DNA from: Candidatus Dormiibacterota bacterium
GTDB lineage: Bacteria > Chloroflexota > Dormibacteria > Dormibacterales > Dormibacteraceae
Direction of reading: 5' to 3'
DNA: 64,000 nucleotides
Assembly (NCBI GenBank): GCA_003169845.1
Contig: PNAG01000028.1
Coordinates: forward strand, 19,490-83,489
Positions within the stretch are counted from its first letter, which is position 1, and each line of letters begins with the position of its first letter. The notes under the pieces are model-generated. The model searched no databases, was not told the origin of the DNA, and saw nothing but the letters and a program-made list of their open reading frames with translations. Of the stretch, positions 22,529 to 60,741 are shown one piece after another. Made by a program: the position numbers and the translations under genes.

Positions 22529-22593
22529 TTTCCCTCCCCCGCCAGGGGGAGGGAAGGGGTGGGGGGCGACCTGAGCCCGCTACCCCCTCCGCC
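22529..22593 (+). repeat. G/C-rich palindromic repeat, copy A
   Basis: Perfect 10 bp arms TCCCTCCCCC-GCCA-GGGGGAGGGA, followed by AGGGGTGGGGGGCGACCTGAGC. Lies between convergent genes and supplies the last codons of the FeS subunit. Confidence 0.75.
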
Positions 22594-23449
22594 TTTGCAC
22601 GAACTCGAACCCGAATCGTCCTTTCACGCACAGGTGTCCCTCGGTGACGCTGTGGTCGAGCGGCGAGGTCACTTTCACGATCGAGTTGTCCTGCACGTGA
22701 AGCTCGAGCATGCAGCCGACCCCGCAGTAAGGGCACACCGTCTCGGTCACCGTCTGCTGTGACTCGTCCCAGGTGCCGGCCTGGCGCATGTCGTACTCGC
22801 TCTTGAACATCAGCGCGCCGGTCGGACACACGCCGATGCAGTTTCCGCAGTAGACGCAGGCGGATTCGGGCAGCGGCGCGGTGAACTCCGTCGCGATGTG
22901 AGCGTCGAAGCCGCGGCCCGCCACACCGATCGCGAAAGTGTTCTGAGCATCTGCGCCACACGCCTCGACGCACTTGTAGCAGAGGATGCAGCGCGAGTAG
23001 TCGCGGACATAGAGGTCGTTGTCAATCTTCACCGGCTGCGCAACCGTCGCGACGTTTTCGCCAAAGCGCTCCGGGGTAGCTCCGTACCGCCGCATCCATC
23101 CATGGACCTGCGGCGAGCACAGCGACATGTCAACCGATGACGCGAGGAGCTCGAGCACGAGGCGCCGGCTGTGACGCACCCGCTCCGAGTCGGTCTGGAT
23201 CTTCATGCCCGCCTCGACCGTGCGCGAGCAGGCCGGGACCAGCACGCGCGACCCCTCCACCTCGACCACGCAAACACGGCAGACGTTGACCGGCGTCAGC
23301 GTCTCGAGCTGGCACAGAGTCGGCGTGTCGATGCGAAGCTGCCGGCACGCGTCGAGGATGGTCGCGCCCTCGAGCACGTCCATCTCCTGGCCGTCGATGC
23401 TCACCTTGACCAACCGCTTCGGCAGACCGACGAATACTCGCTCAGCCAT
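22580..23449 (-). CDS. Formate dehydrogenase Fe-S subunit (N-terminal NuoG-like part of FdhA)
   Basis: 289 aa carrying a 2Fe-2S ferredoxin domain, two 4Fe-4S motifs and the molybdopterin-type 4Fe-4S domain. Motifs: CRVC.., CILCYKCVEAC, CVYCGNCIGVCP, then CPYCGVGC...LCVKGRFGFEF. The ORF stops where the catalytic domain normally begins. Confidence 0.8.
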   Translation of the reverse strand: MAERVFVGLPKRLVKVSIDGQEMDVLEGATILDACRQLRIDTPTLCQLETLTPVNVCRVCVVEVEGSRVLVPACSRTVEAGMKIQTDSERVRHSRRLVLELLASSVDMSLCSPQVHGWMRRYGATPERFGENVATVAQPVKIDNDLYVRDYSRCILCYKCVEACGADAQNTFAIGVAGRGFDAHIATEFTAPLPESACVYCGNCIGVCPTGALMFKSEYDMRQAGTWDESQQTVTETVCPYCGVGCMLELHVQDNSIVKVTSPLDHSVTEGHLCVKGRFGFEFVQRRRG

Positions 23450-25232
23450 TGATCACCTTGAGCTGTGTGAGTCCCGACGCGATCGCGTTCGCCGCCGTCT
23501 GGCCCAGCCCACAGATCGACGCATCGCGCATCGCCTGCGCGATGTCGCTCAGAAGGCTCATGTCGGAGTCGCGTGCCTCTCCGTTGCGATCGCTGAGCAG
23601 CCGGTGCAGGACCTCTTCCTGCCGCACCGTGCCGACGCGACAGGGCACGCACTGCCCGCACGACTCATCGCGGAAAAACCGCGCGATGCGAAGCAGGATC
23701 TGCTTCACGTCGGCGGAGTCGTCGAGAACGATCACGGCGCCGGATCCAAGGGTCGCCCCGATCGCGCGCGTCCCCTCGAAGCTGAGCGGGACGTCGAGCT
23801 GCCGCTCGGTGACGAACGAACCGGCCGCTCCGCCGAGCAGCACCGCTTGCAGGCTGTGGCCGTCGCGCAGGCCGCCGGCGAGGTCGATCAGCGCCCGCAG
23901 CGTCGTGCCCATGGGGACCTCGTAGAGGCCAGGTTCGCGTACGTGGCCCGAGAGGCAGAAAAGCCGCGTCCCGGTGGAGTCGGGAGTGCCGGTCGCCGCA
24001 AAAGCGGCTCCTCCCTCGACGACGATGTCCAGCACGTTGACCAGCGTCTCCACGTTGTTGACGAGCGTCGGCTTGCCAAAGAGACCCGCCTGCACCGGGA
24101 ACGGCGGCTTGTTGCGCGGCTCGCCGCGCTTTCCCTCGATCGAGTTGAAAAGCGCAGTCTCCTCGCCGCATATGTAGGCTCCCGCGCCCCGGCGGACCTC
24201 GATGTCGCAATCTAGAAATCCACGCGCGCGAGCCTGGTCGATAGCGTTTTCGATCCGACGCCTCGCCAGCGGATACTCACCTCGGACGTACAGGTAGCCC
24301 TTCTCACACCCGGTGGCAAACGCGGCGATAGTCATCCCCTCGATCACAGCGAATGGATCACGCTCCATCAGCTCGCGGTCCTTGAAGGTTCCGGGTTCGG
24401 ACTCGTCCGCGTTGCACACGATGTAGTGAGGGCGGACCGGGGCTTTCGACACGGAATCCCACTTGCGCCCGGTTGGGAACGCCGCACCTCCTCGGCCGAG
24501 CAGCTTCGCTTCCGTCACCTGGCGGATGACGCCTTCAGGACCGAGCTCGATCGCCCGCCGCAGCGCGGCGTAGCCGCCATGCTCGCGGTAGCTGTCGATG
24601 CTCTCGGGATCGACGACACCAATCCGCCGCAAGAGCTTGCGTGGACGGTCAGGCAGCGCGGGGACTTCTGCTTGAGGCCAATCGCTTCCACGCAGGATGT
24701 CCTGCGCCACGTCGATGGTGAGGGGCGCCACCTGGCGCTCGTCGTGAGCTGCTCCCGCACGCTCCACCAGAGCCGCCGGTGCTCGGTCGCACAGGCCGAG
24801 ACAGGGGCTGCGATGCCACGTCTTGCCCGCCGGACCGGCGGTCTTTTCGAGCGCCTCGCACAGGGCGTCGGCGCCCGCGCACTTGCAGGCGATGTCATCG
24901 CAGACGTGAAGCACGAGGGGCGGCCTTTCGTCGAGCGCAAAGCGTCCGTAGAAGCTCACGACTCCGTAGGCCTCTGCCGGGGGGATCGACAACCTGCGGC
25001 ATGCGTACTCCAGTCCGCCACGGCTGACCCAGCCGACTCTGTCCTGGATCGCGTGAAGCACCGGGAGCAGCAGCGGGCGCCGAGACCGCGCGGCGGCGCC
25101 GCCGAAGCCGACGTGGTCGTCCTCCGGCCGGCGCGTCCCACCCTCCCAGAGCGAAGCGGGGTCGCCGAGCAAGCCGTCGACCGCCGCGATCTCCTCGGCC
25201 GTCGGTGGCCCCCCGGTGGTCCGGATGTCCAC
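23442..25232 (-). CDS. NAD-linked formate dehydrogenase diaphorase subunit (NuoE-like + NuoF-like fusion)
   Basis: 596 aa with an N-terminal thioredoxin-like 2Fe-2S part (VCDDIACKC...CLGLCD). The NuoF FMN/NADH core follows (GRGGAAFPTGRKW, ESCGQCVPCR). Confidence 0.85.
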   Translation of the reverse strand: MDIRTTGGPPTAEEIAAVDGLLGDPASLWEGGTRRPEDDHVGFGGAAARSRRPLLLPVLHAIQDRVGWVSRGGLEYACRRLSIPPAEAYGVVSFYGRFALDERPPLVLHVCDDIACKCAGADALCEALEKTAGPAGKTWHRSPCLGLCDRAPAALVERAGAAHDERQVAPLTIDVAQDILRGSDWPQAEVPALPDRPRKLLRRIGVVDPESIDSYREHGGYAALRRAIELGPEGVIRQVTEAKLLGRGGAAFPTGRKWDSVSKAPVRPHYIVCNADESEPGTFKDRELMERDPFAVIEGMTIAAFATGCEKGYLYVRGEYPLARRRIENAIDQARARGFLDCDIEVRRGAGAYICGEETALFNSIEGKRGEPRNKPPFPVQAGLFGKPTLVNNVETLVNVLDIVVEGGAAFAATGTPDSTGTRLFCLSGHVREPGLYEVPMGTTLRALIDLAGGLRDGHSLQAVLLGGAAGSFVTERQLDVPLSFEGTRAIGATLGSGAVIVLDDSADVKQILLRIARFFRDESCGQCVPCRVGTVRQEEVLHRLLSDRNGEARDSDMSLLSDIAQAMRDASICGLGQTAANAIASGLTQLKVING

Positions 25233-27166
25233 TAGGTTCTGATGCCTGCGGGCAGCTTCTCGATCCTGATCGCGCTGGCTTTGAACTCGGCCGTGCCTGA
25301 CTTGGGATCGGTCGCGTCGATGGTGAGGACGTTGGTGGCCACCTGGTCGGGAAAGTGAAGCGTGAGGAACGCCAGGCCCGGCCGCAGCGATTCGTCAAAC
25401 CGGATCGGCACCTCGACCGACCCTCGGCGCGAGCTGGCAAGGACCCGCTCGCCGTCATGGATGCCGAGCCGCTCGCCGTCCGCCGGCGAGATCAGGAGCG
25501 CCTCCCTCTTGCGCAGCGGCGAGCTGTATTGGTTGCTCTGCACGCCGGTGTTGAACGAGTCGAGCCGCCGGCCGGTGGTGAGCCGGATTGGAAAGTCCTT
25601 CGTCAGGCGGTCGACTGGCGGGTCGTGCTCCACGGCGTGAAACGGTGCCGGCATCCCTTCGACAGGGTCCTTCCACAATCGCGCGTGCAGGAACTGAGTG
25701 CCTGGGTGCGACTCGTCTGGGCAGGGCCACTGGATTCCGCCAAGCTCGTCGAGCCGCGCGTACGACATCCCGGCGTGCATCGGCGAAAGCTCGCGGCACT
25801 CATCCCACACCTGCTCGGCGGTCGGGCGACCCCAGTCGCACCCGAGCCGGCGAGCGAGCTCGCCGATGATCTCGAGATCGTCACGGGCCCCGACCGGCGG
25901 CTCCAGCGCACGGCGAACGCGCTGCACGCGCCGCTCGCTGTTGGTGACCGTGCCGTCGGACTCCGCCCAGCCGGCCGTCGCGGGCAGCACGACGTGAGCC
26001 AGCTCCGCCGTTTGGGTCAGGAAGATGTCCTGCACGACCAGGTGCTCGAGGCCGCCGAGCAGTCGAACCGCGCGAGTTTGGTCCGCCTCGCTGCGCGCCG
26101 GGTTCTCGCCCACGATGTAGGCCGCTGTCAGCTCGCCATGCTCCATAGCGTCGAACATCTCGCTGAGGTGGTAGCCCTTCTTGTCGGGAAACTGAGCGCC
26201 GCCCCACGCGCGTGAGAACTTGGCGTGGATGTCAGGTTCCTGGAGGTCCTGGAACCCGGGCAGCCGGGCGGGGATGGCGCCCATGTCACCGCCTCCCTGG
26301 ACGTTGTTCTGGCCGCGCAGCGGATTCAGGCCGCAGCCGTAGCGGCCGACCTTGCCGGTGAGCAGCGCGAGGTTGATCAGCGCCAGCACGTTGTCGGTGG
26401 CGTTGTGATGCTCGGTGATGCCAAGCGTCCAGCAGATCATCGCCCGTTCGGCGCGCGCGTATTCGAGCGCGACGTCCCTGATCGCGTCTGCAGGCACCCC
26501 GGTTTCTTTCTCAGCAACCTCGAGCGTGTAAGCCTCGACGCAGCGGGCGAACTCCTCATAGCCCGTCGTGGCCCGCTCGATAAACTCCTTGTTCGCCAGG
26601 CCCGCGTGGATGATCACGCGCGCCATTGCGTTGGCCAGCGCGATGTCGCTGCCAACATCGATGCCCAGCCACACGTCGGCCCACTGCGCGGAGCTGGTGC
26701 GCCGCGGATCCACCGCCACCAGGCGTGCTCCGTTACGGACGCCGCGGAGCAGGTGATGGAAGAAGATCGGGTGCGTCTCGCGCGCGTTGGAGCCCCACAG
26801 GATCACGAGGTTCGTTTCCTCAGCCTCGCGATACGAGCTGGTTCCTCCTCCGGCTCCGAACACTGTCGCCAGACCGGCGACGCTTGGAGCGTGTCAAGTC
26901 CGGTTGCAGCTGTCGATGTTGTTGCTGTGCATCACGGCGCGAGTGAACTTCTGCGCGATGTAGTTCATCTCGTTGCTCTGCTTGGAGCAGCTGAACATCC
27001 CGAAAGCGTTCGGCCCTCGGGTCCTGGCCGTCGCGAAGCCGGCCGCGGCCAGCTCGAGCGCCTCCTCCCAGGAAGCGGGGCGCAGCCGCCCACCTTCTCT
27101 GACGAGAGGCTCGGCCAGACGGACGAGCCCGTCATCCATGAGAAGGACAATATAGGAGCGTGCCAC
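25232..27166 (-). CDS. fdhA: Formate dehydrogenase catalytic (Mo/W-bis-PGD) subunit, selenocysteine at in-frame TGA 26894-26896
   Basis: ORFs 26894..27166 and 25232..26863 share one frame. Read-through gives NNIDSCNRT-U-HAPSVAGLATVFGAGGG, and a SECIS-like hairpin follows. The start may be ATG at 27139. Confidence 0.8.
26865..26881 (-). promoter_or_regulatory. SECIS-like stem-loop (GUCGCC-GGUCU-GGCGAC) 12 nt downstream of the UGA
   Basis: Perfect 6 bp stem. The GGUCU loop sits at codon +7 after the UGA, the same offset I recall for the E. coli fdhF SECIS. Confidence 0.65.
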
Positions 27167-27176
27167 GCTGTGAGCT

Positions 27177-27716
27177 ATGAGCGACGAACATAATCGGCCG
27201 CTAGCCGAAACTGTCGTTCTGGTTCCAGCGCTCGACGTAGGTCAGTTGGTGCACGAGCTTCGGATGCAGCACGACCCAAGTGCTGCCGCTGGAATACCTC
27301 CCCACGTCACCCTGATGTTTCCATTCATGCCTCCATCAGATCTAAATGCACCTGCAATTGACACGCTTGACAGAGTTATCAGCAGCGCGGGAGCTTTCCA
27401 GTTTTCTCTAACGGGGGTGAACCAATTCGAACAGGGTGTCGTCTACCTAGAGCCAGAACCTGTCGAGCCCTTTGCCCGCCTGACGAGAGAGATCAGTCGG
27501 CAGTTCGGCATTCTGCCTTTCGACGGTGATTTCGGGGACGAGCCAGTGGTTCATCTAACCGTCGCAGTAGTTGAGTCAGCCTCAATACGTCAGCAGCTAG
27601 CAACCCAGCTAGGCGGCGTAGTCCCGATTGTCATCAAAGCTGAAGAAGCGTGGCTCATGGTTGGCACCAATGCCAGCACATGGAACATCGTTCGAAAGAT
27701 GCGGTTTCGCAGCTGA
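27177..27716 (+). CDS. 2H-phosphoesterase / 2'-5' RNA ligase (LigT-like) family protein
   Basis: 179 aa with two H-x-T-x motifs (PHVTLMF and VHLTVAV). Visibly lower GC than the flanking sequence. Confidence 0.65.
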   Translation: MSDEHNRPLAETVVLVPALDVGQLVHELRMQHDPSAAAGIPPHVTLMFPFMPPSDLNAPAIDTLDRVISSAGAFQFSLTGVNQFEQGVVYLEPEPVEPFARLTREISRQFGILPFDGDFGDEPVVHLTVAVVESASIRQQLATQLGGVVPIVIKAEEAWLMVGTNASTWNIVRKMRFRS

Positions 27717-27729
27717 ATCCCGCGCGACG

Positions 27730-29013
27730 CTAGCTGTTGGGTGCGGCCCGCGCCTCAGCAAAAGCGCACGCATCCGCGATCAGGCTAACCGCGTAGCTGA
27801 ACTGCATCGCCTCGCCGCCCCACAGCGACAAAGGCGTGCTCGGACCGATGTCCGGATGCCTGTGCGCGCTCACCGGATCTCGAGCCGGTGGCTGGATCAC
27901 ATGTCCGTCGTCTGTCTCGAATGAAAATCCGCCCACTATTTTGCGGATGCGATACGCACCCGAGTGGTGACGCCGGTGATGAAACCCGCACAAAAGCAGG
28001 AGGTTGTCCAGGTTGGTTTCGCCACCGAGCGCCCAATGCTCATGGTGATGAGCTTCTGTACGGTACGCCGGCACGCCACAACCAGGAAACCGGCAGAAGC
28101 GATCTCTCACGTGGACCGCCAGGCGCAGCCGGTCCGGCACCATGCGCTGCTTGCGGCCGACATCGATCGGCAATCCATCCCTTTCGGTCACACCGATCAC
28201 CTCGGCCTCGCAGCCGATTCGCCGCGCCGCGCCGGCCGACAGCGCTGAACCGCCTTCGACAAAACACCGTCCTGCGCTCTCCCCGGTGAGCACCCCAACG
28301 TCGACATGCACCACGACCTGGCGTGCTGCAGTCGACGTGACCAGGTTCTCCGCCCCACCCGCGACCACGTGCTCGCACATCGCCACCAAGGCATCAACTT
28401 TGCGCGCCGCCCAGCGGTCGTCGGCCGGCTCCGGCACCGGCCGCGATCCGGTGATCGACTCCAGCGCAGCCTGCACCACGGCGGCATCTTCGGGCGTGAG
28501 CCTGGCCACGAGCTCGAGCATGCCGTGCTCGTCCCAGTGCATCCAGATCCCTCGCCGCGAGAGATGGTCTTCGGCTTGCTCGGGAGCATCGGCCTCGGCG
28601 ATCCGTCGCAGCGAACGGCAGATCCTCGCCAGCTGGGCGCCAGATGCGCCTTGCGCAATCTCGAGCAGAAACTCATCCGTCGCGGGAGTCGCCACCGTCG
28701 TGATCTGCCGGACCTTGTCGAACGACAGCTGCCCGGCCTCGAACGCCGCGGCTATCTTTGGTAGCAACCTCATCGCCTGACCAACTCGCAGCAACTCGGC
28801 GCCGGTGTGCATATCGAACCCGGTCTTGATCGTCAGCCAGTGTGGGAAGGACCGGATTCCACCACCGCTCCAGCCACCGATCGCATCGAACTCGACGCTC
28901 GCTTTGGCGACCTGTGCCAGCGCCACGTGGGCGTAGGCCGAGACCTCGCCGATCCGGTCGTCAAGAGCCTTTGCGAGGTCCTGATTCTCTGGGCTGGTCG
29001 ACGCGTACTCCAC
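27730..29013 (-). CDS. DUF222-type HNH endonuclease (13E12-repeat-like family), paralog 2
   Basis: 427 aa. HNH/Zn motif CRFPGCGVP..HHHEHW..GGETNLDNLLLLCGFHHRRHH; N-terminal DUF222-like region. Confidence 0.8.
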   Translation of the reverse strand: MEYASTSPENQDLAKALDDRIGEVSAYAHVALAQVAKASVEFDAIGGWSGGGIRSFPHWLTIKTGFDMHTGAELLRVGQAMRLLPKIAAAFEAGQLSFDKVRQITTVATPATDEFLLEIAQGASGAQLARICRSLRRIAEADAPEQAEDHLSRRGIWMHWDEHGMLELVARLTPEDAAVVQAALESITGSRPVPEPADDRWAARKVDALVAMCEHVVAGGAENLVTSTAARQVVVHVDVGVLTGESAGRCFVEGGSALSAGAARRIGCEAEVIGVTERDGLPIDVGRKQRMVPDRLRLAVHVRDRFCRFPGCGVPAYRTEAHHHEHWALGGETNLDNLLLLCGFHHRRHHSGAYRIRKIVGGFSFETDDGHVIQPPARDPVSAHRHPDIGPSTPLSLWGGEAMQFSYAVSLIADACAFAEARAAPNS

Positions 29014-29020
29014 ACATCAA

Positions 29021-29041
29021 ACTATACCAAACAGACGTTCG
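29021..29041 (-). promoter_or_regulatory. SOS-box-like site plus -10 element for HNH paralog 2
   Basis: Minus strand reads CGAACGTCTGTTTGG-TATAGT-7 nt-GTG. GAAC-N4-GTTT lies at 29029-29040, nearly identical to the site at 5384-5395. Confidence 0.5.
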
Positions 29042-37728: not shown

Positions 37729-38652
37729 TTAGGCGGAGCGGCGCGCTCGTTTGGGCGGAGTGGTGGGCGCGCGCGAGTCGGCCAGCTCCTGCAGCCGTCG
37801 CAGGCGGTGGTTCACCGCTGATTTGGACAGCTTCATGCGCCCCGCCAGCTCACCCAGGTTGAGCTCGGGATGCTCGGTGCGCCAGCGAGCCATCTCGCGA
37901 AGCGCCGGCGAGAGGCGCTCCATCCTCCCGTTCGCTTCCAGCCGCCCGATCGCAGCCGCCTGACGAAGGCCGGACCCGATAGTCTTGCCGATGTTGGCCG
38001 TCTCGAAGTTGAGGCGCCGGTTCACCTCGCCGCTGACCTCGCGCATGACCCGCACGTTCTCGAACTCCATGACCGCGCGGCTGGCGCCCATCAGTGATAG
38101 CAGGCGCACGATCGCATCACCCTCCTTGAGGTACACGACGTGCTGCCCGCCGCGCTCCATGATCCCGACCTTCGCGTCGGCCGAACCGGCCAGGTCGGCG
38201 ACGGCGGTCGCCCACGTGCTGGTCGGGACCACGAACTCGAGGTGGTAGCGCGAGCTCGGCACGTTGACCGAACCGCAGCCCAGGAAAAGGCCGCGCAGCA
38301 TCGCCTTCCGGTCGCACGCGGCGTCGGGCACGGCGCTCTTCGCGGACTGGGTAAAGGCGCGTGCGAGGCCTGGCGGCAGCGCCAGCTCGATGAAGAACGA
38401 CATGCGCTTGCGCGTCCTCACGGCCTGGTACTTGGCGTCCATGTGCCCAACGGCGCGCCCGAGCCGTACGACCTTTCGCGCTACCGCGTTTCGCAGCAGC
38501 GAAAAGTAAGCGGCCTGGCCGGGCTCACCCGGGCGCTTGATCAACCTCGCACGCGAGCCGAAATAGATCCCCAGCAGCTCGCTCAGCTGACAGCAGGGCC
38601 GCGCGGGCATAAGCCCGGCCATCTCGTTCTTGACATCAGCGGAGAACGAAAT
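37729..38652 (-). CDS. whiA: DNA-binding sporulation/cell-division regulator WhiA
   Basis: LAGLIDADG-like core and C-terminal HTH (LGELAGRMKLSKSAVNHRLRRL). The conserved N-terminus SFSADVKNE lies upstream of the first ATG, so the start is ATT at 38652 or CTG at 38655, just after GGAGG. Confidence 0.85.
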   Translation of the reverse strand: MSFSADVKNEMAGLMPARPCCQLSELLGIYFGSRARLIKRPGEPGQAAYFSLLRNAVARKVVRLGRAVGHMDAKYQAVRTRKRMSFFIELALPPGLARAFTQSAKSAVPDAACDRKAMLRGLFLGCGSVNVPSSRYHLEFVVPTSTWATAVADLAGSADAKVGIMERGGQHVVYLKEGDAIVRLLSLMGASRAVMEFENVRVMREVSGEVNRRLNFETANIGKTIGSGLRQAAAIGRLEANGRMERLSPALREMARWRTEHPELNLGELAGRMKLSKSAVNHRLRRLQELADSRAPTTPPKRARRSA

Positions 38653-38706
38653 CAGGTGTACCTCCAGGACCGTACTGAAGCCCCGGCCCCAGATCGCAGT
38701 CTATGC

Positions 38707-38795
38707 CTCCCTCCCCCGCCAGGGGCGGGGTCGGGTAAGGGGCCGACGGCCCGCAGAACCTCTCCCTCCTCCGCCAGGGTGGGGGCCGGGGACCC
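38707..38795 (+). repeat. G/C-rich palindromic repeat, copy C (two tandem modules)
   Basis: CCTCCCTCCCCCGCCAGGGGCGGGGTCGGGTAAGGGG and CTCTCCCTCCTCCGCCAGGGTGGGGGCCGGGGACC, in the whiA / E1-beta divergent intergenic region. Confidence 0.7.
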
Positions 38796-38828
38796 CAGAA
38801 TCAGCCCGGGGGCTGGACAATATGCTCC

Positions 38829-39812
38829 ATGCCTGAGATGAGGATGATCGAGGCCGTGCGCGCCGCCATCGGCGAGGAGATGGAGCGCGACGAGCGGGTG
38901 TTGATAATGGGCGAGGACGTCGGCCGGAAGGGCGGCGTGTTCGGAGCGACCGATGGCCTGTATCAGCGCTTCGGCGAGGCTCGCGTGCTCGATACTCCCC
39001 TCGCGGAGTCGGCCATCGTGGGTGTCGCGATCGGCGCGGCTCTGAACGGCCTCATCCCGATCGCCGAGATCCAGTTCGCGGACTTCATCCATCCCGCGTT
39101 CGACCAGATCGTCAGCGAAGCTGCACGCACCCGATACCGGTCGAATGGAGACTGGTCCGTGCCGATCGTCATCCGCACGCCGTTTGGCGGCGGAGTGCAC
39201 GGCGGGCTCTACCACTCGCAGTCGATCGAAGCCTTCTACGCCCACGTCCCCGGGCTCAAGGTCGTCGTGCCGAGCATGCCGGCTGACGCGCACGGCCTGC
39301 TCAAGTCGGCCATCCGCGACCCGGACCCTGTGCTCTTCCTGGAGCACAAGAGGGTCTACCGGCTGGTGGCCGAAGAGGTGCCGGGCGGCGACCACCTCGT
39401 TCCGATCGGTCCCGCCAGGGTGCGCCGCGAGGGCACGAACCTCAGCTGCTTTGCGTGGGGGCTGATGACTCATTACTGCCTCGAGGCGGCGGCCCAGCTG
39501 GCGACAGAGGGCATCAGTGTCGAGGTCGTCGACCTGCGGACACTGGCGCCGCTCGACAGGGACGCGATTCTCGAGTCGGTCCGCAAGACGGGCAAGGGCA
39601 TGGTGGTGCACGAGGACAACCTGACCGGGGGATTCGGCGCCGAGGTCGCGGCGATCATCTCGGAGCATGCCTTCGGCGACCTTGACGGGCCGGTGGTCCG
39701 CGTCGCGGCCCCGGACATCCCTGCCATGCCTTTCAACACCCCGCAGGAGGAGTTCTTCATGCCGAACCCGCACAAGATTGCAGAGGCGATGAGAAAGCTT
39801 GCCGCGTACTGA
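38829..39812 (+). CDS. 2-oxoacid dehydrogenase E1 component, beta subunit
   Basis: 327 aa transketolase-like Pyr and C-terminal domains (GEDVG..GGVF, DTPLAESAIVG, IQFADF). Confidence 0.85.
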   Translation: MPEMRMIEAVRAAIGEEMERDERVLIMGEDVGRKGGVFGATDGLYQRFGEARVLDTPLAESAIVGVAIGAALNGLIPIAEIQFADFIHPAFDQIVSEAARTRYRSNGDWSVPIVIRTPFGGGVHGGLYHSQSIEAFYAHVPGLKVVVPSMPADAHGLLKSAIRDPDPVLFLEHKRVYRLVAEEVPGGDHLVPIGPARVRREGTNLSCFAWGLMTHYCLEAAAQLATEGISVEVVDLRTLAPLDRDAILESVRKTGKGMVVHEDNLTGGFGAEVAAIISEHAFGDLDGPVVRVAAPDIPAMPFNTPQEEFFMPNPHKIAEAMRKLAAY

Positions 39813-41046
39813 GCGCTCTAGCAAGGGAAACCGCCCCCCAGCCCAGCCCTCCCCCTCGCGGGTGAGGGAGACATACCCAACTATCTCCCCAGCCGAATAC
39901 GCGATCCGGCGCCAGGCCGTGGCCGCGGGGATGGAGGCGGCCGGGCTCGACGCGATCTGCGTCTTCTACCCGGCGCGGGTCGCCTACCTGACCGGCTTCC
40001 ACCACATTCCCACGGAGCGCCCCATCGTGCTGGTGCTCGGTCCGAAGACATCCGCCATCCTGGTGGTGCCTGCGGTCGAAAAGGAGCACGCCGAGTCCTC
40101 CACGTCCCTGGACCGGGTCGACGTCTATTTCGAGTACCCGGGCGCCCAGCACCCGATGGAGCACGTGTCCGCGATCCTCGGCGAAATCGGCGCCAGGTCC
40201 GCCCGCACGGGTGCGGACCACGACGGCTACATCCCTTATTGGGGCTACCGGGGTCCGCCCCTCAGCGAACTGCTCGGTCAGCGACTCTTCGATGCCGAGC
40301 CGATCATCGAATCGCTGCGCCGCGTGAAGTCACCAACCGAGATCGCCTGCATACAGCTGAGCTGCGACTGGGCGGTGCGCGCCCACCGTCGCATGCAGGC
40401 CGCAATCGAGACCGGCAAGACGGAGATGGAGATCTATGCGCCGGTGGTCACCGCGACACTTGCGGAGATGCTGCACGAAATGCCGGGCTGGCGGCCGCGC
40501 TCATTCGCGGGCAATGGCCTGGAGGCGATGTTCGTGGGCGGCCGCTCTACGGCGATGCCGCACGGTTTCGTGCGCGGGCACGGCGTGCAGCAAGGCGACG
40601 TGCTGGTGAGCGGGGCGAGCGCGGACATCGACGGGTACCTGAGCGAGCTAGAGCGGACGATGATCGTGGGTGAACCCACACCAGACCAGGTGCGCGGTTT
40701 CGAAGCCATGCTCGCTCTGCAGACGCTGGCGATCGAGACTATGGCGCCAGGCGTGCCGGCGGGCGAGGTCGAGCTGGCCACCGTCCGCCTGGCCGAAGAG
40801 CTCGGCGTCGCGGACAAGCTGCGGCACCACGTCGGGCACTCGATCGGGCTCGAGGGCCACGAAGCCCCCTTTCTCGACCGAGGCGAGGAAACCGTGCTCG
40901 AAGCCGGGATGGTTTTCACTGTCGAACCCGGCGTCTACATGAAGGATGTCGGCGGCTTCCGGCACTCCGACACGGTCGTCATCACCGAAGACGGCTGCCG
41001 TGTCATGACCGACTACCCGCGGGCGCTGAAAGACCTCGTGATTTAA
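39799..41046 (+). CDS. M24-family metallopeptidase (Xaa-Pro dipeptidase/creatinase-like)
   Basis: Creatinase-like N-terminal domain and pita-bread metal ligands (HGVQQGD..SGASADIDGY, HSIGLEGHE, TVEPG). The first ~25 codons of the TTG-started ORF are repeat copy D, so the true start is probably downstream (e.g. GTG 39919 or a non-canonical codon). Confidence 0.8.
   Translation: MPRTERSSKGNRPPAQPSPSRVRETYPTISPAEYAIRRQAVAAGMEAAGLDAICVFYPARVAYLTGFHHIPTERPIVLVLGPKTSAILVVPAVEKEHAESSTSLDRVDVYFEYPGAQHPMEHVSAILGEIGARSARTGADHDGYIPYWGYRGPPLSELLGQRLFDAEPIIESLRRVKSPTEIACIQLSCDWAVRAHRRMQAAIETGKTEMEIYAPVVTATLAEMLHEMPGWRPRSFAGNGLEAMFVGGRSTAMPHGFVRGHGVQQGDVLVSGASADIDGYLSELERTMIVGEPTPDQVRGFEAMLALQTLAIETMAPGVPAGEVELATVRLAEELGVADKLRHHVGHSIGLEGHEAPFLDRGEETVLEAGMVFTVEPGVYMKDVGGFRHSDTVVITEDGCRVMTDYPRALKDLVI
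39831..39871 (-). repeat. G/C-rich palindromic repeat, copy D (inverted orientation)
   Basis: The reverse complement reads GTCTCCCTCACCCGCGAGGGGGAGGGCTGGGCTGGGGGGCGG. Located between the E1-beta stop and the conserved part of the M24 peptidase. Confidence 0.65.
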
Positions 41047-45089: not shown

Positions 45090-45136
45090 CTTCCTCCTCC
45101 GTCGGGGTGGGGGTGTTGGAACCCAACGGGTGGAGC
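45090..45136 (+). repeat. G/C-rich palindromic repeat, copy E
   Basis: CTTCCTCCTCCGTCGGGGTGGGGGTGTTGGAACCCAACGGGTGGAGCC, between the convergent APC permease and response regulator genes. Confidence 0.55.
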
Positions 45137-45140
45137 CGGA

Positions 45141-48938: not shown

Positions 48939-48966
48939 GGACGGGGTTCCGGCCGCGACCCTAGCG

Positions 48967-50838: not shown

Positions 50839-50853
50839 GCAAACTCTCGCCCC

Positions 50854-52284: not shown

Positions 52285-52288
<4 letters not shown>
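51059..52288 (-). CDS. MFS transporter (EntS/MFS_3-like)
   Basis: The called ORF (to 52186) lacks TM1. The upstream in-frame sequence [33 protein letters not shown] is a typical MFS N-terminus. The only start available is CTG at 52288, overlapping the uvrA stop (CTGA), or ATC at 52273. Confidence 0.8.
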
Positions 52289-55191
<2,903 letters not shown>

Positions 55192-55203
55192 TGCAACCCC
55201 TAG

Positions 55204-55602
55204 CTATTCCTTTTCCCTGGTCACTGAAAACGTCCCGCTCGCGGTGGCGACAAGCTTTCCGCCCGGCCCCTCGATCCGGCACTCCGTCACAACCGTGCGG
55301 CGCCCGGCATGAACCACGTGTCCTGTCGCGCGCAGCGTCTCGCCAATCTTCGCGGCTGAGATGAAGTTGAGCTTCAGGTCGAAGCTCATCGCACGGACCA
55401 CTCCTGGCTTCACGGTTCGCACCGCGCGGCCCATTGCCGAGTCAGCCAGCGTGCTGATCATCCCACCGTGGACGAAACCAGAGTGATTCGCCATGTCTTC
55501 CGTCGTCGTCATTTCCACCGTTGCCGTACCGTCCCCGGTTTCCACCGTCTGCATCCCGAGCCACGCCCAGGCCGGCGATTGCGCCTCCACGGCGTTACTC
55601 AC
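55204..55602 (-). CDS. PaaI-family hotdog-fold thioesterase
   Basis: 132 aa from a GTG start. Motif [19 protein letters not shown]. Confidence 0.75.
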
Positions 55603-56020
55603 GGCCCTGTCCCTCGGGGACGGCCAGGCACGTCGATGATGCCCGCGCCACAAGCCTGTTCTGATCGTCCAGGACGTCAGCCTCGCTGAACATCAGCGTC
55701 TGCTTCATCTCCACGACTCGCCCGACAGCGCGCAGGCGCCCTGAGGTGACAGGCCGGATGAAATTGATCTTGAGCTCGATGGTCGTATTCCAGAGCCCAT
55801 CCTCCTGCAGGGTTGCTAGCGACATCCCCATCGCGGCGTCGGCGATCTGCGTGATGACCCCGCCCTGCACAACCCCGCCGCCGTGACGGTGCTGCGGGCC
55901 GGCCTCGAGCTCCAGCACAACCCTTCCCGGCCCAGACTCGGTGATCCGCGCCCCGAGCGTCTCCATCCAGCCCGCCGGCTCAGCCGCCAGCATCTCGGCG
56001 GCGCGCTTGTCATTCCTCAC
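55595..56020 (-). CDS. PaaI-family hotdog-fold thioesterase (tandem paralog)
   Basis: 141 aa with motif GGVVQGGVITQIADAAMG. Confidence 0.75.
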   Translation of the reverse strand: MRNDKRAAEMLAAEPAGWMETLGARITESGPGRVVLELEAGPQHRHGGGVVQGGVITQIADAAMGMSLATLQEDGLWNTTIELKINFIRPVTSGRLRAVGRVVEMKQTLMFSEADVLDDQNRLVARASSTCLAVPEGQGRE

Positions 56021-56035
56021 CGGGCTGCAGCTAAC

Positions 56036-56103
56036 TTGAACGTGTTCGATTTATCTTGACAGAGGCGCAAGTTCCTATTAGGATCGGAGTTGAACATGTT
56101 CAA
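56036..56103. promoter_or_regulatory. Two related palindromic operator candidates flanking a sigma70-like promoter
   Basis: TTGAACGTGTTCGA (56036-56049) and TTGAACATGTTCAA (56090-56103). On the + strand, TTGACA (56056-56061), a 17 nt spacer, then TAGGAT (56079-56084). Confidence 0.5.
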
Positions 56104-56172
56104 TAACACTTCTCCGCTTGATGGAGGAGTCCACCGGGCGCGGGGATCGGAAGTCTCCGCCATTGAACTGGG

Positions 56173-56568
56173 GTGATAGCAATGGACCTTCGGCTGATCG
56201 ACTACGTGGTCTACCTCGTCGCCAGTGTGCTGCTGACCGTGTGGGTCGGGAACACGCTCTTTCGCAACGGCCGGCCCTTCCTGGTGTCGGTGTTCCTGGA
56301 AGCCGGCCTGGCCGACTCGGTCAACCGCCTTCTCGTCGTGGGCTTCTACCTCGTCAACCTGGGCGCCGCCGCTTTGCTGATCAACGCCGGAGGAGCGCCT
56401 GCGACGGTGGGCGACATGGTCCAGGAGACGGTGACGCGAATCGGAGTCGTCCTTCTCGTGTTGGGCGGGATGCACTTCTCCAACATGTTCGTGTTCCACC
56501 TCATCCGCCGGCCCCTCAGGCAGCGCTCCGTGCCGCCTCCGCCCTACCAGCCGGCGCCCGGTGCCTGA
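56173..56568 (+). CDS. Hypothetical integral membrane protein
   Basis: 131 aa with 3-4 predicted TM helices and a Pro-rich tail. Lies directly upstream of the TetR gene. Confidence 0.5.
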   Translation: MIAMDLRLIDYVVYLVASVLLTVWVGNTLFRNGRPFLVSVFLEAGLADSVNRLLVVGFYLVNLGAAALLINAGGAPATVGDMVQETVTRIGVVLLVLGGMHFSNMFVFHLIRRPLRQRSVPPPPYQPAPGA

Positions 56569-56577
56569 GCCAGGCAG

Positions 56578-57273
56578 TTGAACACTGCTTCCGCGGTCGA
56601 ACCACACCGGAACAAACGCGGCGAAAGCTCGAGGGCGGCCATCTTCGGCGCCGCCCTCGACCTGTTCCAGGAACGCGGGTACGAAGCGACGACCATGCGC
56701 GCCATCGCGGTCCGGGCTGGGGTGTCGCTGGGAAGCTCCTACCACTACTTCCCGTCCAAGGAGCACCTCGTGCTCGAGTTCTACCGGCACACGCACGAGC
56801 TGCACCTTGCGGTGATCGCTCCGTTGCTGAGCCGCGAAAAAGACCTCGCGGCCAGGCTCCGGGGCGTGATCCGCGCCGTCATCGTCACGTGCGAGCCCTT
56901 CCACGGCGTGGCCGGCTCGATCTTCAGCTCCGTGGCAAACCCGGCGAGCGCTGTGAACCCGTTCGGTCCCACCTCCCGGGCGCTGCGCGATGAGGTCATC
57001 GCGATGTATGCCGAGGTGGTCAGCGGTTCGGACGCCAAGGTCCCCTCGGACCTGGCGGCCGAGCTCCCGCTTCTGCTGTGGCTGTACCAGATGGGAATCC
57101 TTTATTTCTGGATCTTCGACCGCTCCCAGGGACGCCTGCGCACGCTCGAGGTCATCGATCAGACCACAGACCTGATCGTTCGATTGATAAGCCTTGCCAA
57201 CCTGCCGGTCCTGCGCGGCTCGCGCCGCCGTGCGCTCGCGCTGGTCCGGAGCATCGCCGAAGGCTCTCACTGA
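56578..57273 (+). CDS. TetR/AcrR-family transcriptional regulator
   Basis: N-terminal HTH: AAIFGAALDLFQERGYEATTMRAIAVRAGVSLGSSYHYFPSKEHL. Confidence 0.85.
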   Translation: MNTASAVEPHRNKRGESSRAAIFGAALDLFQERGYEATTMRAIAVRAGVSLGSSYHYFPSKEHLVLEFYRHTHELHLAVIAPLLSREKDLAARLRGVIRAVIVTCEPFHGVAGSIFSSVANPASAVNPFGPTSRALRDEVIAMYAEVVSGSDAKVPSDLAAELPLLLWLYQMGILYFWIFDRSQGRLRTLEVIDQTTDLIVRLISLANLPVLRGSRRRALALVRSIAEGSH

Positions 57274-59357
57274 CGTTTGCGGCCCCCTCGCCAGTTTCCC
57301 CGGACCATCGTCTTCTGCTTGGGCGCCGCCGCTATCGCCATCGCCACCGCCCCATCCTCTTCGGAATCCTTGCCCGTCACCTCGCCGGAGAGTCGCTTGC
57401 GCAAGAGGATGATCCGGTCCCGCACCCGGGCGGCATCCTCGAACTGCAGCTCCTTCGACAGGCGGCGCATCTCCTTCTCCAGGTCGCGCACGATCGCCAG
57501 CAGGTCTTCTCGCGGGACGCCCGCGCCGGCCATGATCTCCACCGCATCCGCCTGGAGGTCGTTCGCGTTGATCTCCATCTGGTAGATCGCCTTCTTCACC
57601 GTCTCCGGCGTGATGCCCCGCTCGGCGTTGTAAGCGATCTGCTTGTTGCGCCGGCGCTCGGTTTCATCGAGGGCCTGGCGCATCGAGTCGGTGATCTTGT
57701 CCGCGTACATCACGACGTGCCCGTCGACGTTGCGCGCCGCGCGTCCGATGGTCTGAATGAACGAGCGGTAGGCGCGGAGGTAACCCTCCTTGTCGGCGTC
57801 GAGGATGCCGATGAACGCGACCTCCGGCAGGTCCAGGCCTTCGCGCAGCAGGTTGATGCCGACCACGACGTCCACCGCGCCCGTGCGCAGGTCCCGCAGC
57901 ACGTCGAGGCGCTCCATCGCGTCGAGCTCCGAGTGCAGGTAGCGCACCTTCACGCCGTACTCGCGCAGGTAGTCCGCAAGGTCTTCGGCGAAGCGCTTCG
58001 TGAGGGTGGTCACCAGCGAGCGGTGGCCAAGCTCAGCGCGCCTCTTCACCTCGGCCAGCAGGTCGTCGATCTGGCCTGCGGTGGGCCGCACCTCGACTGT
58101 CGGATCGACGAGGCCCGTCGGTCGCACCACCATCTCCACCGTGCGCTGCGAGCGACGGATCTCGTACGACCCTGGCGTAGCCGAGACATAGACGACGTCG
58201 TGCGCGCGCTCCTCCCATTCGTCGAAGCTCAAAGGACGGTTGTCGAATGCGCTCGGGAGGCGGAACCCGTACTCGACGAGGGCCGCCTTCCGCGAGCGGT
58301 CACCGCCCAGCATGCCGCCGATCTGAGGCACGGCGACATGCGACTCGTCGACGAAGATGATCGTGTCGTCCGGCAGGAAATCCATCAGCGTGTACGGCGC
58401 GTCCCCTGGGCTGCGTCGCGTGAGATGCATCGAGTAGTTCTCGATACCCGCGCACGTTCCGGTCTCGCGCATCATCTCGAGGTCGAAGTTGGTGCGCTGC
58501 CGCAGCCGCTGAGCCTCCAGCAGCCGGCCGTGCTCCTCGAACCACTTGCAGCGCTCCTCGAGCTCCGCCTCGATGTCGACCATCGCCAGGCGCAGCTTGT
58601 CCGCCGGCGTGACGTAGTGAGACGCGGGAAAGATCGTGAAATCGTTGCGCGTGCCGAGGATCTCGCCGGTGACCGCATCGAGCTCCTGGATCCGTTCGAT
58701 CTCGTCGCCGAAGAACTCGACCCGGTAGACCTTCTCCTCATTTGCCGGCACCAGGTCGACGACGTCACCGCGCACCCTGAAGCGAAGGCGCGCAAGGTCG
58801 TAATCGTTGCGCTCGTACAGCATCTCGGTGAGCTTGCGCAGGAACACCTCGCGGCGGATCGTCTGCCCTTTCTCGACGTGCAACGACTCGCCCATGTAAT
58901 CCTCGACCGAGCCGACGCCGTAGATGCAGCTGATGCTGGCCACGACCAGCACGTCGCGCCTTGTGAGCAGCGCTTGCGTCGTCGAGTGGCGCATGCGGTC
59001 GATCTCTTCGTTCCGGCTCGAATCCTTTTCGATGTACGTGTCGGAGCGGGCGATGTACGCCTCTGGCTGGTAGTAGTCGTAGTAGCTGACGAAGTACTCG
59101 ACCGCGTTGTCGGGCAGGAGGTGGCGGAACTCCGCGCACAGCTGTGCGGCCAGCGTCTTGTTGGGACTCAGCACGAGCACGGGTCGCTGCAGCTGCTCGA
59201 CGGCCCAGGCCATGACGTTGGTCTTGCCGCTTCCGGTGACCCCTGCCAGGACTTGCTGGGTCAGCCCGGAGCGCACGCCGTCAACCAGCTGCTCGATGGC
59301 TTGAGGCTGGTCCCCGGCCGGCTTGAAGGGTGCGTCGACACGAAAGCTGGAGGGCAT
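57267..59357 (-). CDS. uvrB: Excinuclease ABC subunit B
   Basis: 696 aa with helicase motifs (GVTGSGKT, DESH), beta-hairpin region, and a C-terminal UVR domain. Confidence 0.97.
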   Translation of the reverse strand: MPSSFRVDAPFKPAGDQPQAIEQLVDGVRSGLTQQVLAGVTGSGKTNVMAWAVEQLQRPVLVLSPNKTLAAQLCAEFRHLLPDNAVEYFVSYYDYYQPEAYIARSDTYIEKDSSRNEEIDRMRHSTTQALLTRRDVLVVASISCIYGVGSVEDYMGESLHVEKGQTIRREVFLRKLTEMLYERNDYDLARLRFRVRGDVVDLVPANEEKVYRVEFFGDEIERIQELDAVTGEILGTRNDFTIFPASHYVTPADKLRLAMVDIEAELEERCKWFEEHGRLLEAQRLRQRTNFDLEMMRETGTCAGIENYSMHLTRRSPGDAPYTLMDFLPDDTIIFVDESHVAVPQIGGMLGGDRSRKAALVEYGFRLPSAFDNRPLSFDEWEERAHDVVYVSATPGSYEIRRSQRTVEMVVRPTGLVDPTVEVRPTAGQIDDLLAEVKRRAELGHRSLVTTLTKRFAEDLADYLREYGVKVRYLHSELDAMERLDVLRDLRTGAVDVVVGINLLREGLDLPEVAFIGILDADKEGYLRAYRSFIQTIGRAARNVDGHVVMYADKITDSMRQALDETERRRNKQIAYNAERGITPETVKKAIYQMEINANDLQADAVEIMAGAGVPREDLLAIVRDLEKEMRRLSKELQFEDAARVRDRIILLRKRLSGEVTGKDSEEDGAVAMAIAAAPKQKTMVRGNWRGGRKRQ

Positions 59358-59378
59358 TGGAGAGAACTGATTCTAAGG

Positions 59379-59392
59379 CGAACGGACGTTCG
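59379..59392 (-). promoter_or_regulatory. LexA (Cheo-type) SOS box upstream of uvrB
   Basis: Perfect palindrome CGAAC-GGAC-GTTCG. On the minus strand it is followed by TAGAAT and then 12 nt to the ATG. Confidence 0.7.
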
Positions 59393-59416
59393 ACGAGAGG
59401 CCGCCACCAGCGTTGA

Positions 59417-60682
59417 TCAGGGTAGGGCGAGGATCATGGCCTCCACGATCGTCCCTTCCTTGATTCCTTGATCTCCTGGCGGGATGCGCACCAGCGCGTG
59501 TGCTCCCGCCAGCGACATGAGGCGCGACGAGGACTGGGAGCCGGTTGATACGCCGACCAGATCCCGACCTTCGCGTCGCAGGGTGACGCGCTGGTACTCG
59601 GTGCGGTCAGCTGTTGCTCGGGCGTCGTAGCCGAGGCGGACCGGCAGGGTGGGGCGTTGAAGCTGTGAGTAGCCCTGCATCTTTCGCAGCGCCGGCCGGA
59701 CGAAAACCTCGAAGGTGACGAGCGACGAAACGGGAAAACCGGGCAGACCGAACGCGACTTTTTCCCTCCCCCCATCGGGTGGAGGGCCAGGGTGAGGGGC
59801 TGAAACTCGCATCCGGGCGGGGATGGTCGCGAAAGTGAATGGCTTCCCCGGCTTCAGCTTGACCCGCCCGACGTGAACGTCGCCGAGGGACTCGAGCAGC
59901 GGCTTGATGAGATCGTGGGTGCCGACCGAGACACCGCCCGACGTGACCAGGACGTCCGCTCCCTCGAGTGCATCGACGACGAGGCGCCTCAGCGCTTCGG
60001 GCTCGTCCGGACCGATGCCGAGCAGTCGCACCTCTGCACCGGCGTCGCGCAGCGCCGCGAGGAGAGCCCACCGGTTGGAATCGGGGATCTGTCCGCGCGC
60101 AGGCTTCTTCCCCACCTCGACGAGCTCGTCGCCGGTGGACAGCAGCGCGACGCGTGGGCGGCGCCCGACCGGCAGGTCTGCCCGACCGAGCGCTGCCGCC
60201 AGCCCGATCTCCGCCGCGCCAAGCACCGTGCCGGCCCGGAGCACTTCCTCTCCGGCGCGCAGGTCGGCGCCGGGTGCGTGAAAGTTCTGTCCCGCCACGA
60301 GACCCGCCGGGATTTTGACGACCTCCCCGCTCAACTCGACGTCCTCGACCATCACGACACAATCCGTGCCGTCGGGCAGAACCCCTCCCGTCAGGATGCG
60401 GATCGCCGTGCCCGGCTGAACCTTGCTGTCGAACGGCCGACCGGCCGCCGACTCCCCGACCACCCGCAGCGACTTCCCACCGTCCACGGCCCGGACGGCA
60501 TACCCGTCGACAGCGCTCGAAGGAAAGGCGGGAAGCGGCGCCGAAGCCACGAGTTCCTCGGCCAGCACCCGGCCGGGACAGTCGCTAAGAGGAACCCGTT
60601 CCGCACCCAGGACAGGCGCGTGCGCGAGCACCAGCGCAGCGGCGGCGCCGGCATCGACCAGCGGGTAGGCGGAGGCCCTCAC
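59417..60682 (-). CDS. moeA: Molybdopterin molybdotransferase MoeA (with ~18 aa in-frame repeat-derived insertion)
   Basis: 421 aa with motifs SAVDGYAV, STGDELV, TSGGVSVG, KPGKP....GLPGFPVSS. Confidence 0.88.
   Translation of the reverse strand: MRASAYPLVDAGAAAALVLAHAPVLGAERVPLSDCPGRVLAEELVASAPLPAFPSSAVDGYAVRAVDGGKSLRVVGESAAGRPFDSKVQPGTAIRILTGGVLPDGTDCVVMVEDVELSGEVVKIPAGLVAGQNFHAPGADLRAGEEVLRAGTVLGAAEIGLAAALGRADLPVGRRPRVALLSTGDELVEVGKKPARGQIPDSNRWALLAALRDAGAEVRLLGIGPDEPEALRRLVVDALEGADVLVTSGGVSVGTHDLIKPLLESLGDVHVGRVKLKPGKPFTFATIPARMRVSAPHPGPPPDGGREKVAFGLPGFPVSSLVTFEVFVRPALRKMQGYSQLQRPTLPVRLGYDARATADRTEYQRVTLRREGRDLVGVSTGSQSSSRLMSLAGAHALVRIPPGDQGIKEGTIVEAMILALP
59759..59802 (+). repeat. G/C-rich palindromic repeat, copy F (inside moeA coding sequence)
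   Basis: TTTTTCCCTCCCCCCATCGGGTGGAGGGCCAGGGTGAGGGGCTG. It shares the TTTTTCCC(C)TCCCCC head with copy G, which lies 900 bp away. Confidence 0.65.
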
Positions 60683-60683
60683 T

Positions 60684-60741
60684 TTTTCCCCTCCCCCGCA
60701 AGGGAGAGAGTGGCCCGAAGGGCCGGGTGGGGAGACGACCC
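60684..60741 (+). repeat. G/C-rich palindromic repeat, copy G
   Basis: TTTTTCCCCTCCCCCGCAAGGGAGAGAGTGGCCCGAAGGGCCGGGTGGGGAGACGACCCCC, between the ABC transporter stop and the moeA start. Confidence 0.65.

Follow-up and report, generated by a model that had tools for sequence, protein, structure and literature searches.

The window analysed here, a 64-kb stretch of contig PNAG01000028.1 from an uncultured soil bacterium of Candidatus Dormiibacterota (66.7% G+C), contains eight copies of a short, GC-rich palindromic repeat that lie between and within genes (Table 1). These copies belong to one repeat family, which is real and well defined. A preliminary description of this DNA had recognized seven related stretches, whose sequences read as given; the count of eight results from the division of one stretch, C, into the copies C1 and C2. 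The placement at gene boundaries described there was also confirmed, but two copies rather than one were located inside a gene, namely F in moeA and D in the gene of an M24 peptidase.

Table 1. Copies of the palindromic repeat in the 64-kb window, with their scores under the covariance model R1 and the genes around them.
Copy	Position	Strand	Form	R1 score	Setting
A	22529..22569	+	canonical: TCCCTCCCCC-GCCA-GGGGGAGGGA-A-GGGGTGGGGGG-CGA	65 bits	between convergent genes for a signal-peptide protein (~22092-22514, +) and a NuoG/Fdh-like Fe-S protein (22580-23449, -)
B	34581..34668	+	'long form': C-arm and loop, G-arm split by a ~36-nt non-palindromic insert (CAATCAGTAAGTCCCAT...GCGCGC), then GGGGTGGGGGG tail	19.4 bits (E=0.05; tail half, 34618-34661)	gap-pgk-tpiA operon, between tpiA (stop 34674, -) and a His-phosphatase gene (-; start probably GTG 34571)
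C1	38706..38746	+		53 bits	divergent region between whiA (37729-38622, -) and an E1-beta/transketolase-like gene (38829-39812, +)
C2	38761..38792	+	shortened, diverged second module in tandem with C1: CTCTCCCTCCTCC-GCCA-GGGTGGGGGCCGGGG	23.6 bits (E=6e-3)	as C1
D	39831..39871	-	canonical, inverted; read as ...NRPPAQPSPSRVRE...	58 bits	inside the 5' coding region (N-terminal) of an M24 peptidase gene
E	45090..45140	+	degenerate: C-arm CTTCCTCCTCC, G-run GGGGTGGGGG, small hairpin GTTGG-AAC-CCAAC, then GGGTGGAG		between convergent genes for an amino-acid permease (stop 45089) and a response regulator (stop 45141)
F	59761..59814	+	read as ...RVSAPHPGPPPDGGRE...	30.7 bits (E=2e-4)	inside moeA (59417-60682, -)
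G	60686..60738	+	degenerate, inner hairpin GGCCC-GAA-GGGCC	15.4 bits (E=0.3)	between an ABC/FtsX transporter gene (stop 60743) and moeA (start GTG 60682)

An unbiased repeat search related A to C1 (80% over 40 nt) and to D in inverted orientation (87% over 38 nt). The motif CCCTCCCCC occurred seven times in the window against 1.3 expected, a number that was reached in none of 100 shuffles. The preliminary description had proposed a covariance model as a check of the family, and such a model (R1, with 41 positions and a 9-bp hairpin) was trained on A, C1, D and 11 copies of other genomes and run over the whole window with filters off. In addition to the three training copies, it recovered F and C2, which were outside the training set, and the E-values of these five copies ranged from 1e-11 to 6e-3. 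The tail half of B and copy G gave weak matches, copy E was missed, and no further convincing match was found anywhere in the window. A strict three-stem search, which required a 9-nt C-stem, a Watson-Crick G-stem and a third stem mirroring the G-stem with at most one mismatch each, was passed by A (0 mismatches) and D (1+1 mismatches), and 40 shuffled windows gave no hit; the other six copies were too diverged for class II triplex (ITxF) criteria. The membership of B and E is backed by relatives, but that of G is not, its support consisting of the weak R1 match and two comparison loci. A motif frequency no higher than base composition predicts, which the preliminary description had named as refuting if seen genome-wide, is contradicted within the window by the shuffles and by the R1 E-values. 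No Rfam family reached its gathering threshold in the window, with noise only (E up to 10) near C and D, and the window holds no tRNA gene, so that an anchor for integration is lacking there.

In the element, a C-rich arm of 9 nt is joined through a 4-nt loop to a G-rich arm, and after a further 2-3 nt comes a second G-run that mirrors the G-arm. This extra run contains GGG-T-GGGGG, which mirrors the GGGGG-A-GGG of the G-arm and places a T opposite its A. Since the hairpin core is self-complementary and therefore the same on both strands, orientation is set solely by the extra run, of G on one strand and of C on the other. The consensus begins TCTCCCTCCCCCGCCAGGGGGAGGG... and contains stop codons in none of its six frames. 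In some variants the second and third stems are separated by a small GC hairpin (GGCGC-NNN-GCGCC), and the long form harbors a 36-nt non-palindromic insert within the G-arm, which gives a composite of 77-80 nt. Across relatives, 97% of the cells of the hairpin were paired, with one compensatory change from C-G to U-A. The hairpins are very stable, with predicted energies of -21 to -31 kcal/mol. Copy A forms a perfect hairpin with 10-bp arms and a 4-nt loop, as the preliminary description had it; the extent given there was too long, as the copy ends near 22569 and the last ~24 nt include the end of the neighboring gene. When the third stem was compared across relatives, a mirror repeat was the better description in 11 cases and a direct repeat in 4, with 16 ties; the lean to the mirror is slight, as the G-arm is nearly symmetric. 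This geometry is only suggestive and leans weakly toward a triplex.

Eighty syntenic loci of relatives (WhiA identity 77-90%) were collected from a WhiA scan of metagenome contigs, and comparison with these loci revealed that the copies are polymorphic for gain and loss. Sites B, C, D, E, and F were empty in many close relatives, and elsewhere among the relatives the same sites held other variants, other orientations or 51-nt tandem arrays. The tpiA/His-phosphatase junction measured 4-22 nt in 32 of 38 relatives, the closest included, versus 105 nt in the window, and five relatives carried other modular versions at this junction. The region upstream of whiA was 206 nt long in the window versus 112-115 nt in the closest relatives, where the ~92-nt insertion formed by C1 and C2 was absent; it directly adjoins a conserved TAGACT, and other variants occupied the same spot in L130, L132, L138, L142, L145, L146, L149, L151, and L191 (L numbers denote comparison loci). 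Copy E likewise appeared as a ~50-nt insertion, as the permease/response-regulator gap was 59 nt in the window versus 4-17 nt in L129, L132, L149, L164, L166, and L172, and a modular relative of copy E was present in the same gap of L139. At the site of copy G, a degenerate counterpart was found in L004 (85% MoeA identity), and L006 (85% over aligned residues, no moeA insert) retained a C-rich remnant only, without the G-arm. On the + strand of the window the G-rich strand is carried by all copies but D, as previously described; this bias (7 of 8, two-sided p ~0.07) is not significant and is not conserved in relatives. The idea that orientation follows transcription, with the C-tail always in the mRNA, was rejected, as both orientations occurred at the M24 and moeA sites of relatives.

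Two of these sites lie within coding sequence, and there the copies preserve the reading frame. In moeA, an exact in-frame gap of 51 nt (51 alignment columns) in L006 and L007 corresponds to copy F. MoeA homologues that are 80-85% identical came in two sizes, 404-405 aa where the insert was missing and 417-432 aa where it was present, and they differed at this loop only. The 17-residue insert falls within the MoCF-binding domain, in the loop that connects its KPGKP and FGLPG strands. The AlphaFold model of MoeA was poor (predicted local distance difference test, pLDDT, 52.7), and the insert was modelled as an unstructured loop with pLDDT below 50.

The second coding site is the N-terminal tail of the M24 peptidase (window 39799-39906), which is highly variable and rich in Lys and Pro. 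The gene appears to start at TTG 39799, overlapping the last codons and stop of the upstream E1-beta-like gene. Between the E1-beta stop and the conserved ...EEYA motif, 39 of 40 relatives and the window itself (40 of 41 loci) had an open frame with a length of 1 mod 3, within a range of 58 to 151 nt. The extra length consisted of elements in either orientation, as a single copy, an inverted pair or 51-nt tandem units (L174 and L192). It is likely that gene callers place the M24 start too far downstream. Elsewhere, a Dormibacteraceae species genome (L059) encoded a peptidase-FHA protein of 1153 aa whose linker contained four in-frame copies, each translated as GLDSPPTPTLPLAGEGE or a near variant, and the E1-alpha gene of more distant relatives carried one in-frame insert. 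The peptides encoded by in-frame elements include SAPHPGPPPDGGREK and GLDSPPTPTLPLAGEGE. What makes such insertion tolerable is that the unit length is divisible by three and that no frame of the consensus contains a stop. Several other calls of copies inside open reading frames (ORFs), which came from a stop-to-stop test, proved on inspection to be 5' leaders. In-frame coding insertion is the strongest feature of the family; it had escaped the preliminary description, as had the three-part architecture, although the REP/MITE-like behavior (repetitive extragenic palindrome, miniature inverted-repeat transposable element) that was proposed there for a dispersed family holds, with copies present or absent between close relatives and a composite variant at several unrelated sites.

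That composite, the long form, has spread among sites and was seen at three or four unrelated ones. It was ~90% identical at the tpiA junction of the window, upstream of whiA in L130 and L132, and in the M24 tail of the same two loci, and one more copy, whose location was not placed, was found in L061. A long-form peptide, SPLRGAISKSHPDRARAQGQGEG, was encoded at the moeA site of homologue P0042, a site at which the canonical copy of the window points the other way. Because the long form is a distinctive composite that would not originate repeatedly by chance, its distribution points to copy-and-paste spread. Canonical 41-mers nearly identical to copy A were found at non-orthologous places in six Dormibacterota species genomes, and inverted doublets were present in L139 and L063. 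An exact scan of species genomes with the 18-mer of the head yielded 114 stretches, mostly from other phyla, with many matches in Proteobacteria, Chloroflexota and others, in which the extra tract reads GGGAGAGGG. A treatment of all 114 stretches as one family was rejected, as the flanks must be read first. In a plasmid collection, the only matches were look-alikes from Azospirillum (82-88% identity over 30-45 nt).

By its sequence, the family of the window is a sister variant of the BoxC/PIT/TMECO elements (Bergler, 1992; Hoyne et al., 2000; Holder et al., 2015), with a third stem compatible with T.A-T triplets. The literal TMECO pattern is 5'-CCCTCNCCC N3-6 GGGNGAGGG N3 GGGNGAGGG-3', and 3610 copies have been reported in 262 proteobacterial genomes (Holder et al., 2015, PMC4666352). 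In Escherichia coli MG1655, the 23 TMECO copies are all intergenic, show no strand bias and include five inverted pairs, and TMECO loci are unusually variable between E. coli strains (PMC4666352). Oligonucleotides of TMECO form a stable class II purine-motif triplex in vitro, as determined by circular dichroism (CD) and nuclear magnetic resonance (NMR), and in E. coli the PIT/TMECO elements acted neither as promoters nor as terminators and were linked neither to gene function nor to a transposon (PMC4666352). TMECO has been reported in Proteobacteria, and GC-rich triplex motifs have been noted in Cyanobacteria and Thermus (PMC4666352); there is no earlier report of TMECO from Dormibacterota. 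The literal pattern had no match in the window, six matches in the Dormibacterota relatives L174 and L192 at the site of copy D, one in an E. coli locus (L202) and many in proteobacterial loci. The E. coli copy between yihS and yihR, TCCCCTCGCCCCTTTGGGGAGAGGGTTAGGGAGAGGGG, is nearly identical to the variants of L174 and L192.

The Dormibacterota family shares with BoxC/PIT/TMECO the three-part architecture of C-arm, G-arm and mirror G-run, a length of ~35-40 nt, many dispersed copies, occasional inverted pairs, strain-variable loci and the lack of an associated transposon; dispersal and variability are evident from the eight copies in 64 kb and from turnover at five sites across the 80 syntenic loci. 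On the other hand, the third stem in the window is GGG-T-GGGGG, with T opposite A, whereas that of TMECO is GGGNGAGGG; the E. coli copies are reported to be always intergenic, whereas Dormibacterota copies are also found in frame within genes; and the Dormibacterota family adds 51-nt tandem arrays and the nested long form.

The repeats also resemble REP/REPIN elements, as these are short GC-rich imperfect palindromes that are mostly intergenic and sometimes form inverted doublets, but the Dormibacterota repeats have no conserved GTAG-type head, occur within genes as well, and carry a third G-run without a counterpart in REP. They differ from MITEs in having no terminal inverted repeats beyond the hairpin itself, no visible target-site duplication, and a unit of 41-51 nt rather than the typical 100-400 bp. 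Mycobacterial interspersed repetitive units (MIRUs) are similar in that units of ~50 nt lie at operon junctions, often in tandem, and preserve downstream translation; however, MIRUs are not known to be palindromes of a C-arm and a G-arm, are defined by small overlapping ORFs and are known from mycobacteria only. Apart from the present family, palindromic repeats placed in frame within genes are best known from the Rickettsia palindromic elements (RPEs), which have no transposase of their own and are inserted in frame into unrelated housekeeping genes, where the encoded peptide is tolerated (PMC10969869). The Dormibacterota copies were likewise found in frame in unrelated genes, which is a likeness of behavior and not of sequence, as RPEs are AT-rich, ~100-150 bp long and known from Rickettsia only, whereas the Dormibacterota unit is GC-rich and measures 41-51 nt. 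Nothing relevant was found in the literature on GGGGGAGGG as a palindromic repeat or on Dormibacterota repeats. The kind of element, BoxC/PIT/TMECO-like with REP-like behavior, is therefore already known, and what is new is the phylum, the variant of the third stem, the nested long form and, above all, the RPE-like in-frame insertions and the rapid turnover.

The best explanation of these data, to which we give a probability of roughly 75%, is that the copies represent a non-coding, self-propagating palindromic repeat of the BoxC/PIT/TMECO type with a unit of ~41-51 nt (~80 nt in the long form). A single strand of the element would fold into a very stable hairpin and potentially into an intrastrand purine-motif triplex or a G-quadruplex, and an enzyme, or a repair or recombination route, that recognizes this folded strand could drive active copy-and-paste propagation. 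The family would be mobile now or would have been so recently. At a few tolerant sites, copies would be acquired and lost, exchanged for others, inverted, and multiplied in tandem; these sites are convergent gaps, operon junctions, the promoter-proximal spot upstream of whiA, and disordered loops and tails of proteins. The elements would be selfish passengers, most of them neutral or of slight use to the host and not dedicated to regulation, and would persist only where they are tolerated. At operon junctions, the supply of a ribosome-binding site presumably lets only those copies survive whose orientation puts the G-arm beside the start codon. The differing variants and orientations at the same sites could reflect insertion hot spots, a small number of permissive sites, or overwriting through the self-complementary core.

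Several observations weigh against such a mobile repeat. No transposase or other mobilizing gene was detected: the search for a RAYT transposase, which the preliminary description had suggested, was made by tblastn with the E. coli RayT protein against the window and 96 Dormibacterota loci and gave nothing below E=7, in a small sample of 890 kb that is mostly one syntenic region. Neither a target-site duplication nor a clear target motif was recognized when filled and empty sites were compared at moeA, the tpiA junction and upstream of whiA. Copies E and G are weak members, neither of them significant alone by R1, and the 26 R1 matches in 683 kb of relatives correspond to a density below that of the window. 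The repeated occupation of the same sites could also result from an ancient presence followed by loss and divergence rather than from repeated insertion. The TMECO triplex was seen neither in duplex DNA nor by in vivo dimethyl sulfate (DMS) footprinting in E. coli (PMC4666352).

The alternative that survives best, although we regard it as improbable, is that the copies are host regulatory sites, namely hairpins that protect 3' ends, terminators, sequestered or donated ribosome-binding sites, or promoter-proximal structures, with dispersal as a by-product. On the minus strand, the G-arm of copy B (GGGGGAGGGAGAG) occupies the Shine-Dalgarno position of the downstream gene and that of copy G (GGGGGAGGGGAAAAAGTG) is the Shine-Dalgarno sequence of moeA; both G-arms lie 5-14 nt before the next start codon, and no other Shine-Dalgarno sequence is visible there. 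The location of A and E between convergent genes, the contact of C with the conserved TAGACT upstream of whiA, and the very high stability of the hairpins also fit this explanation. However, the same junctions are empty in close relatives, copies in coding sequence occur in either orientation, and the flanking genes have no common function. The donation of a ribosome-binding site looks like a condition of survival at an operon junction and not like a purpose. The terminator role that the preliminary description had offered is not supported, as no T-run (U-tract) follows the hairpin on either strand at the copies, two copies are intragenic, and published tests of PIT in E. coli gave neither promoter nor terminator activity (PMC4666352). 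In addition, a terminator scan of the 22-42 kb stretch, which excludes E, F, and G, did not call A, B, C1, C2, or D, and terminator-like sites in this stretch were at the level of shuffles.

Still less probable is a selected G-quadruplex (or i-motif) that acts in regulation or genome instability, in which case the pattern of four G-runs and not the hairpin would be under selection. The canonical pattern (four runs of at least three G with spacers of 1-7 nt) is present in A, C1, D, and F and accounts for four of the eight quadruplex motifs of the window, and ViennaRNA predicts that the canonical G-rich strand prefers a three-layer quadruplex (-33 vs. -22.7 kcal/mol). The canonical copies have real G-quadruplex potential at the level of sequence, but a quadruplex is not the structure with the best support. 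The pattern is missing from B, C2, E, and G and is carried by four of the seven stretches of the preliminary description; the window total of eight is not above shuffles (5.4); and the diverged copies F and C1 are predicted to prefer the hairpin. Furthermore, the conserved C-arm is needless for a quadruplex and would compete with it, and the tail tends to mirror the G-arm, which fits the triplex that CD and NMR established for the sister element. The weakest alternative, that GC-rich hairpins and Shine-Dalgarno-like GGAGG strings arise by chance in a 67% GC genome, can draw on the Shine-Dalgarno core within the G-arm, on an unrelated C-rich hairpin at 6040-6062 that passes a loose hairpin filter (shuffles yield 1.7 per window) and on the lack of individual significance of E and G, but it is hardly credible in view of the R1 E-values of five copies, the absence of the three-stem motif from all 40 shuffles, the near-identical 41-mers in other Dormibacterota genomes, and insertions that are exact against empty sites.

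The BoxC/PIT/TMECO elements have been known in E. coli for thirty years, and their sole established link is with local genome instability. In Dormibacterota, sites are cleanly polymorphic for insertion, a marked variant has spread, units are amplified in tandem, and copies lie in frame within enzymes of an essential type. Together these features form the clearest comparative evidence assembled here that such elements move and can remodel proteins in the manner of RPEs. A bolder idea, which we consider speculative and rather unlikely, is that three-stem elements of the BoxC/TMECO type constitute one ancient, pan-bacterial mobile class whose movement has been overlooked, with a machinery shared by Proteobacteria, Chloroflexota, and Dormibacterota that recognizes the folded single strand; if so, the Dormibacterota data would catch mobility in the act, through the copying of a composite variant, repeated hits on the same sites and the in-frame remodelling of enzymes such as MoeA. 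In practice, the repeats will break the assembly of metagenome-assembled genomes (MAGs), create spurious Pro/Gly-rich ORFs and shift start-codon calls, as for the M24 peptidase and the His-phosphatase, and they provide ready-made strain markers for Dormibacterota populations.

Some further observations concern the neighborhood of the copies. The first 22 kb of the window contained no copy of the element. The GC skew was negative throughout the window and most genes were on the minus strand, and the plus strand is probably the lagging-strand side. Upstream of copy A, codon bias did not support a confident gene in 21500-22514, where a 284-aa ORF had no Pfam match; its C-terminal 140 residues (from ~22092) resemble a signal peptide followed by an Ala/Glu-rich, acidic low-complexity protein. 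At the tpiA/His-phosphatase junction, L154 and L190 carried a different repeat with a unit of ~49 nt, ACTCAGAGGCTGCGCCGAGAGTTCGCGGGGGCCCCTAG, in three copies and one copy, respectively. Upstream of whiA, TAGACTGC was located ~75-80 nt from the coding start and was kept in nearly all of the 72 relatives examined, marking the insertion point of the element; from its letters it looks like a -10 box, and it was followed downstream by a conserved GGAGGT and ATTTCGTTCTC (window 38600-38700, minus-strand sense). More distant relatives (L157-L200) harbored an E1-alpha (thiamine pyrophosphate-binding) gene between the E1-beta-like gene and whiA. This gene was absent from the window and close relatives, which leaves the E1-beta-like gene without an adjacent partner (window 38623-38828).

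Copies of the Dormibacterota type (R1 39-60 bits) were also present in genomes labelled as other phyla, including L047 and L049 (a Moraxellaceae MAG, with contigs of 198 and 115 kb), L060 (a Chloroflexota MAG), and the short contigs L031, L063, and L119, which were binned as Verrucomicrobiia, Ramlibacter, and Alcanivorax. The three short contigs may be binning errors, and the long Moraxellaceae and Chloroflexota contigs may be genuine. In Geobacteraceae and Desulfuromonadaceae (L008, L021, L024, L046, and L107), the same hairpin was centered in a longer palindrome, CTCTTGCAAAAGTC...GACTTTTGCAAGAG, so that the core there forms part of a MITE-like element that has terminal inverted repeats of its own. 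The BoxC/TMECO copy between yihS and yihR of E. coli (L202, 404-438) was found in ~994 of 5426 complete E. coli genomes and is unannotated in RefSeq. In Alloalcanivorax mobilis (L051, 4597-5239), five literal TMECO motifs were clustered within 650 nt, four of them in tandem with a period of 154 nt.

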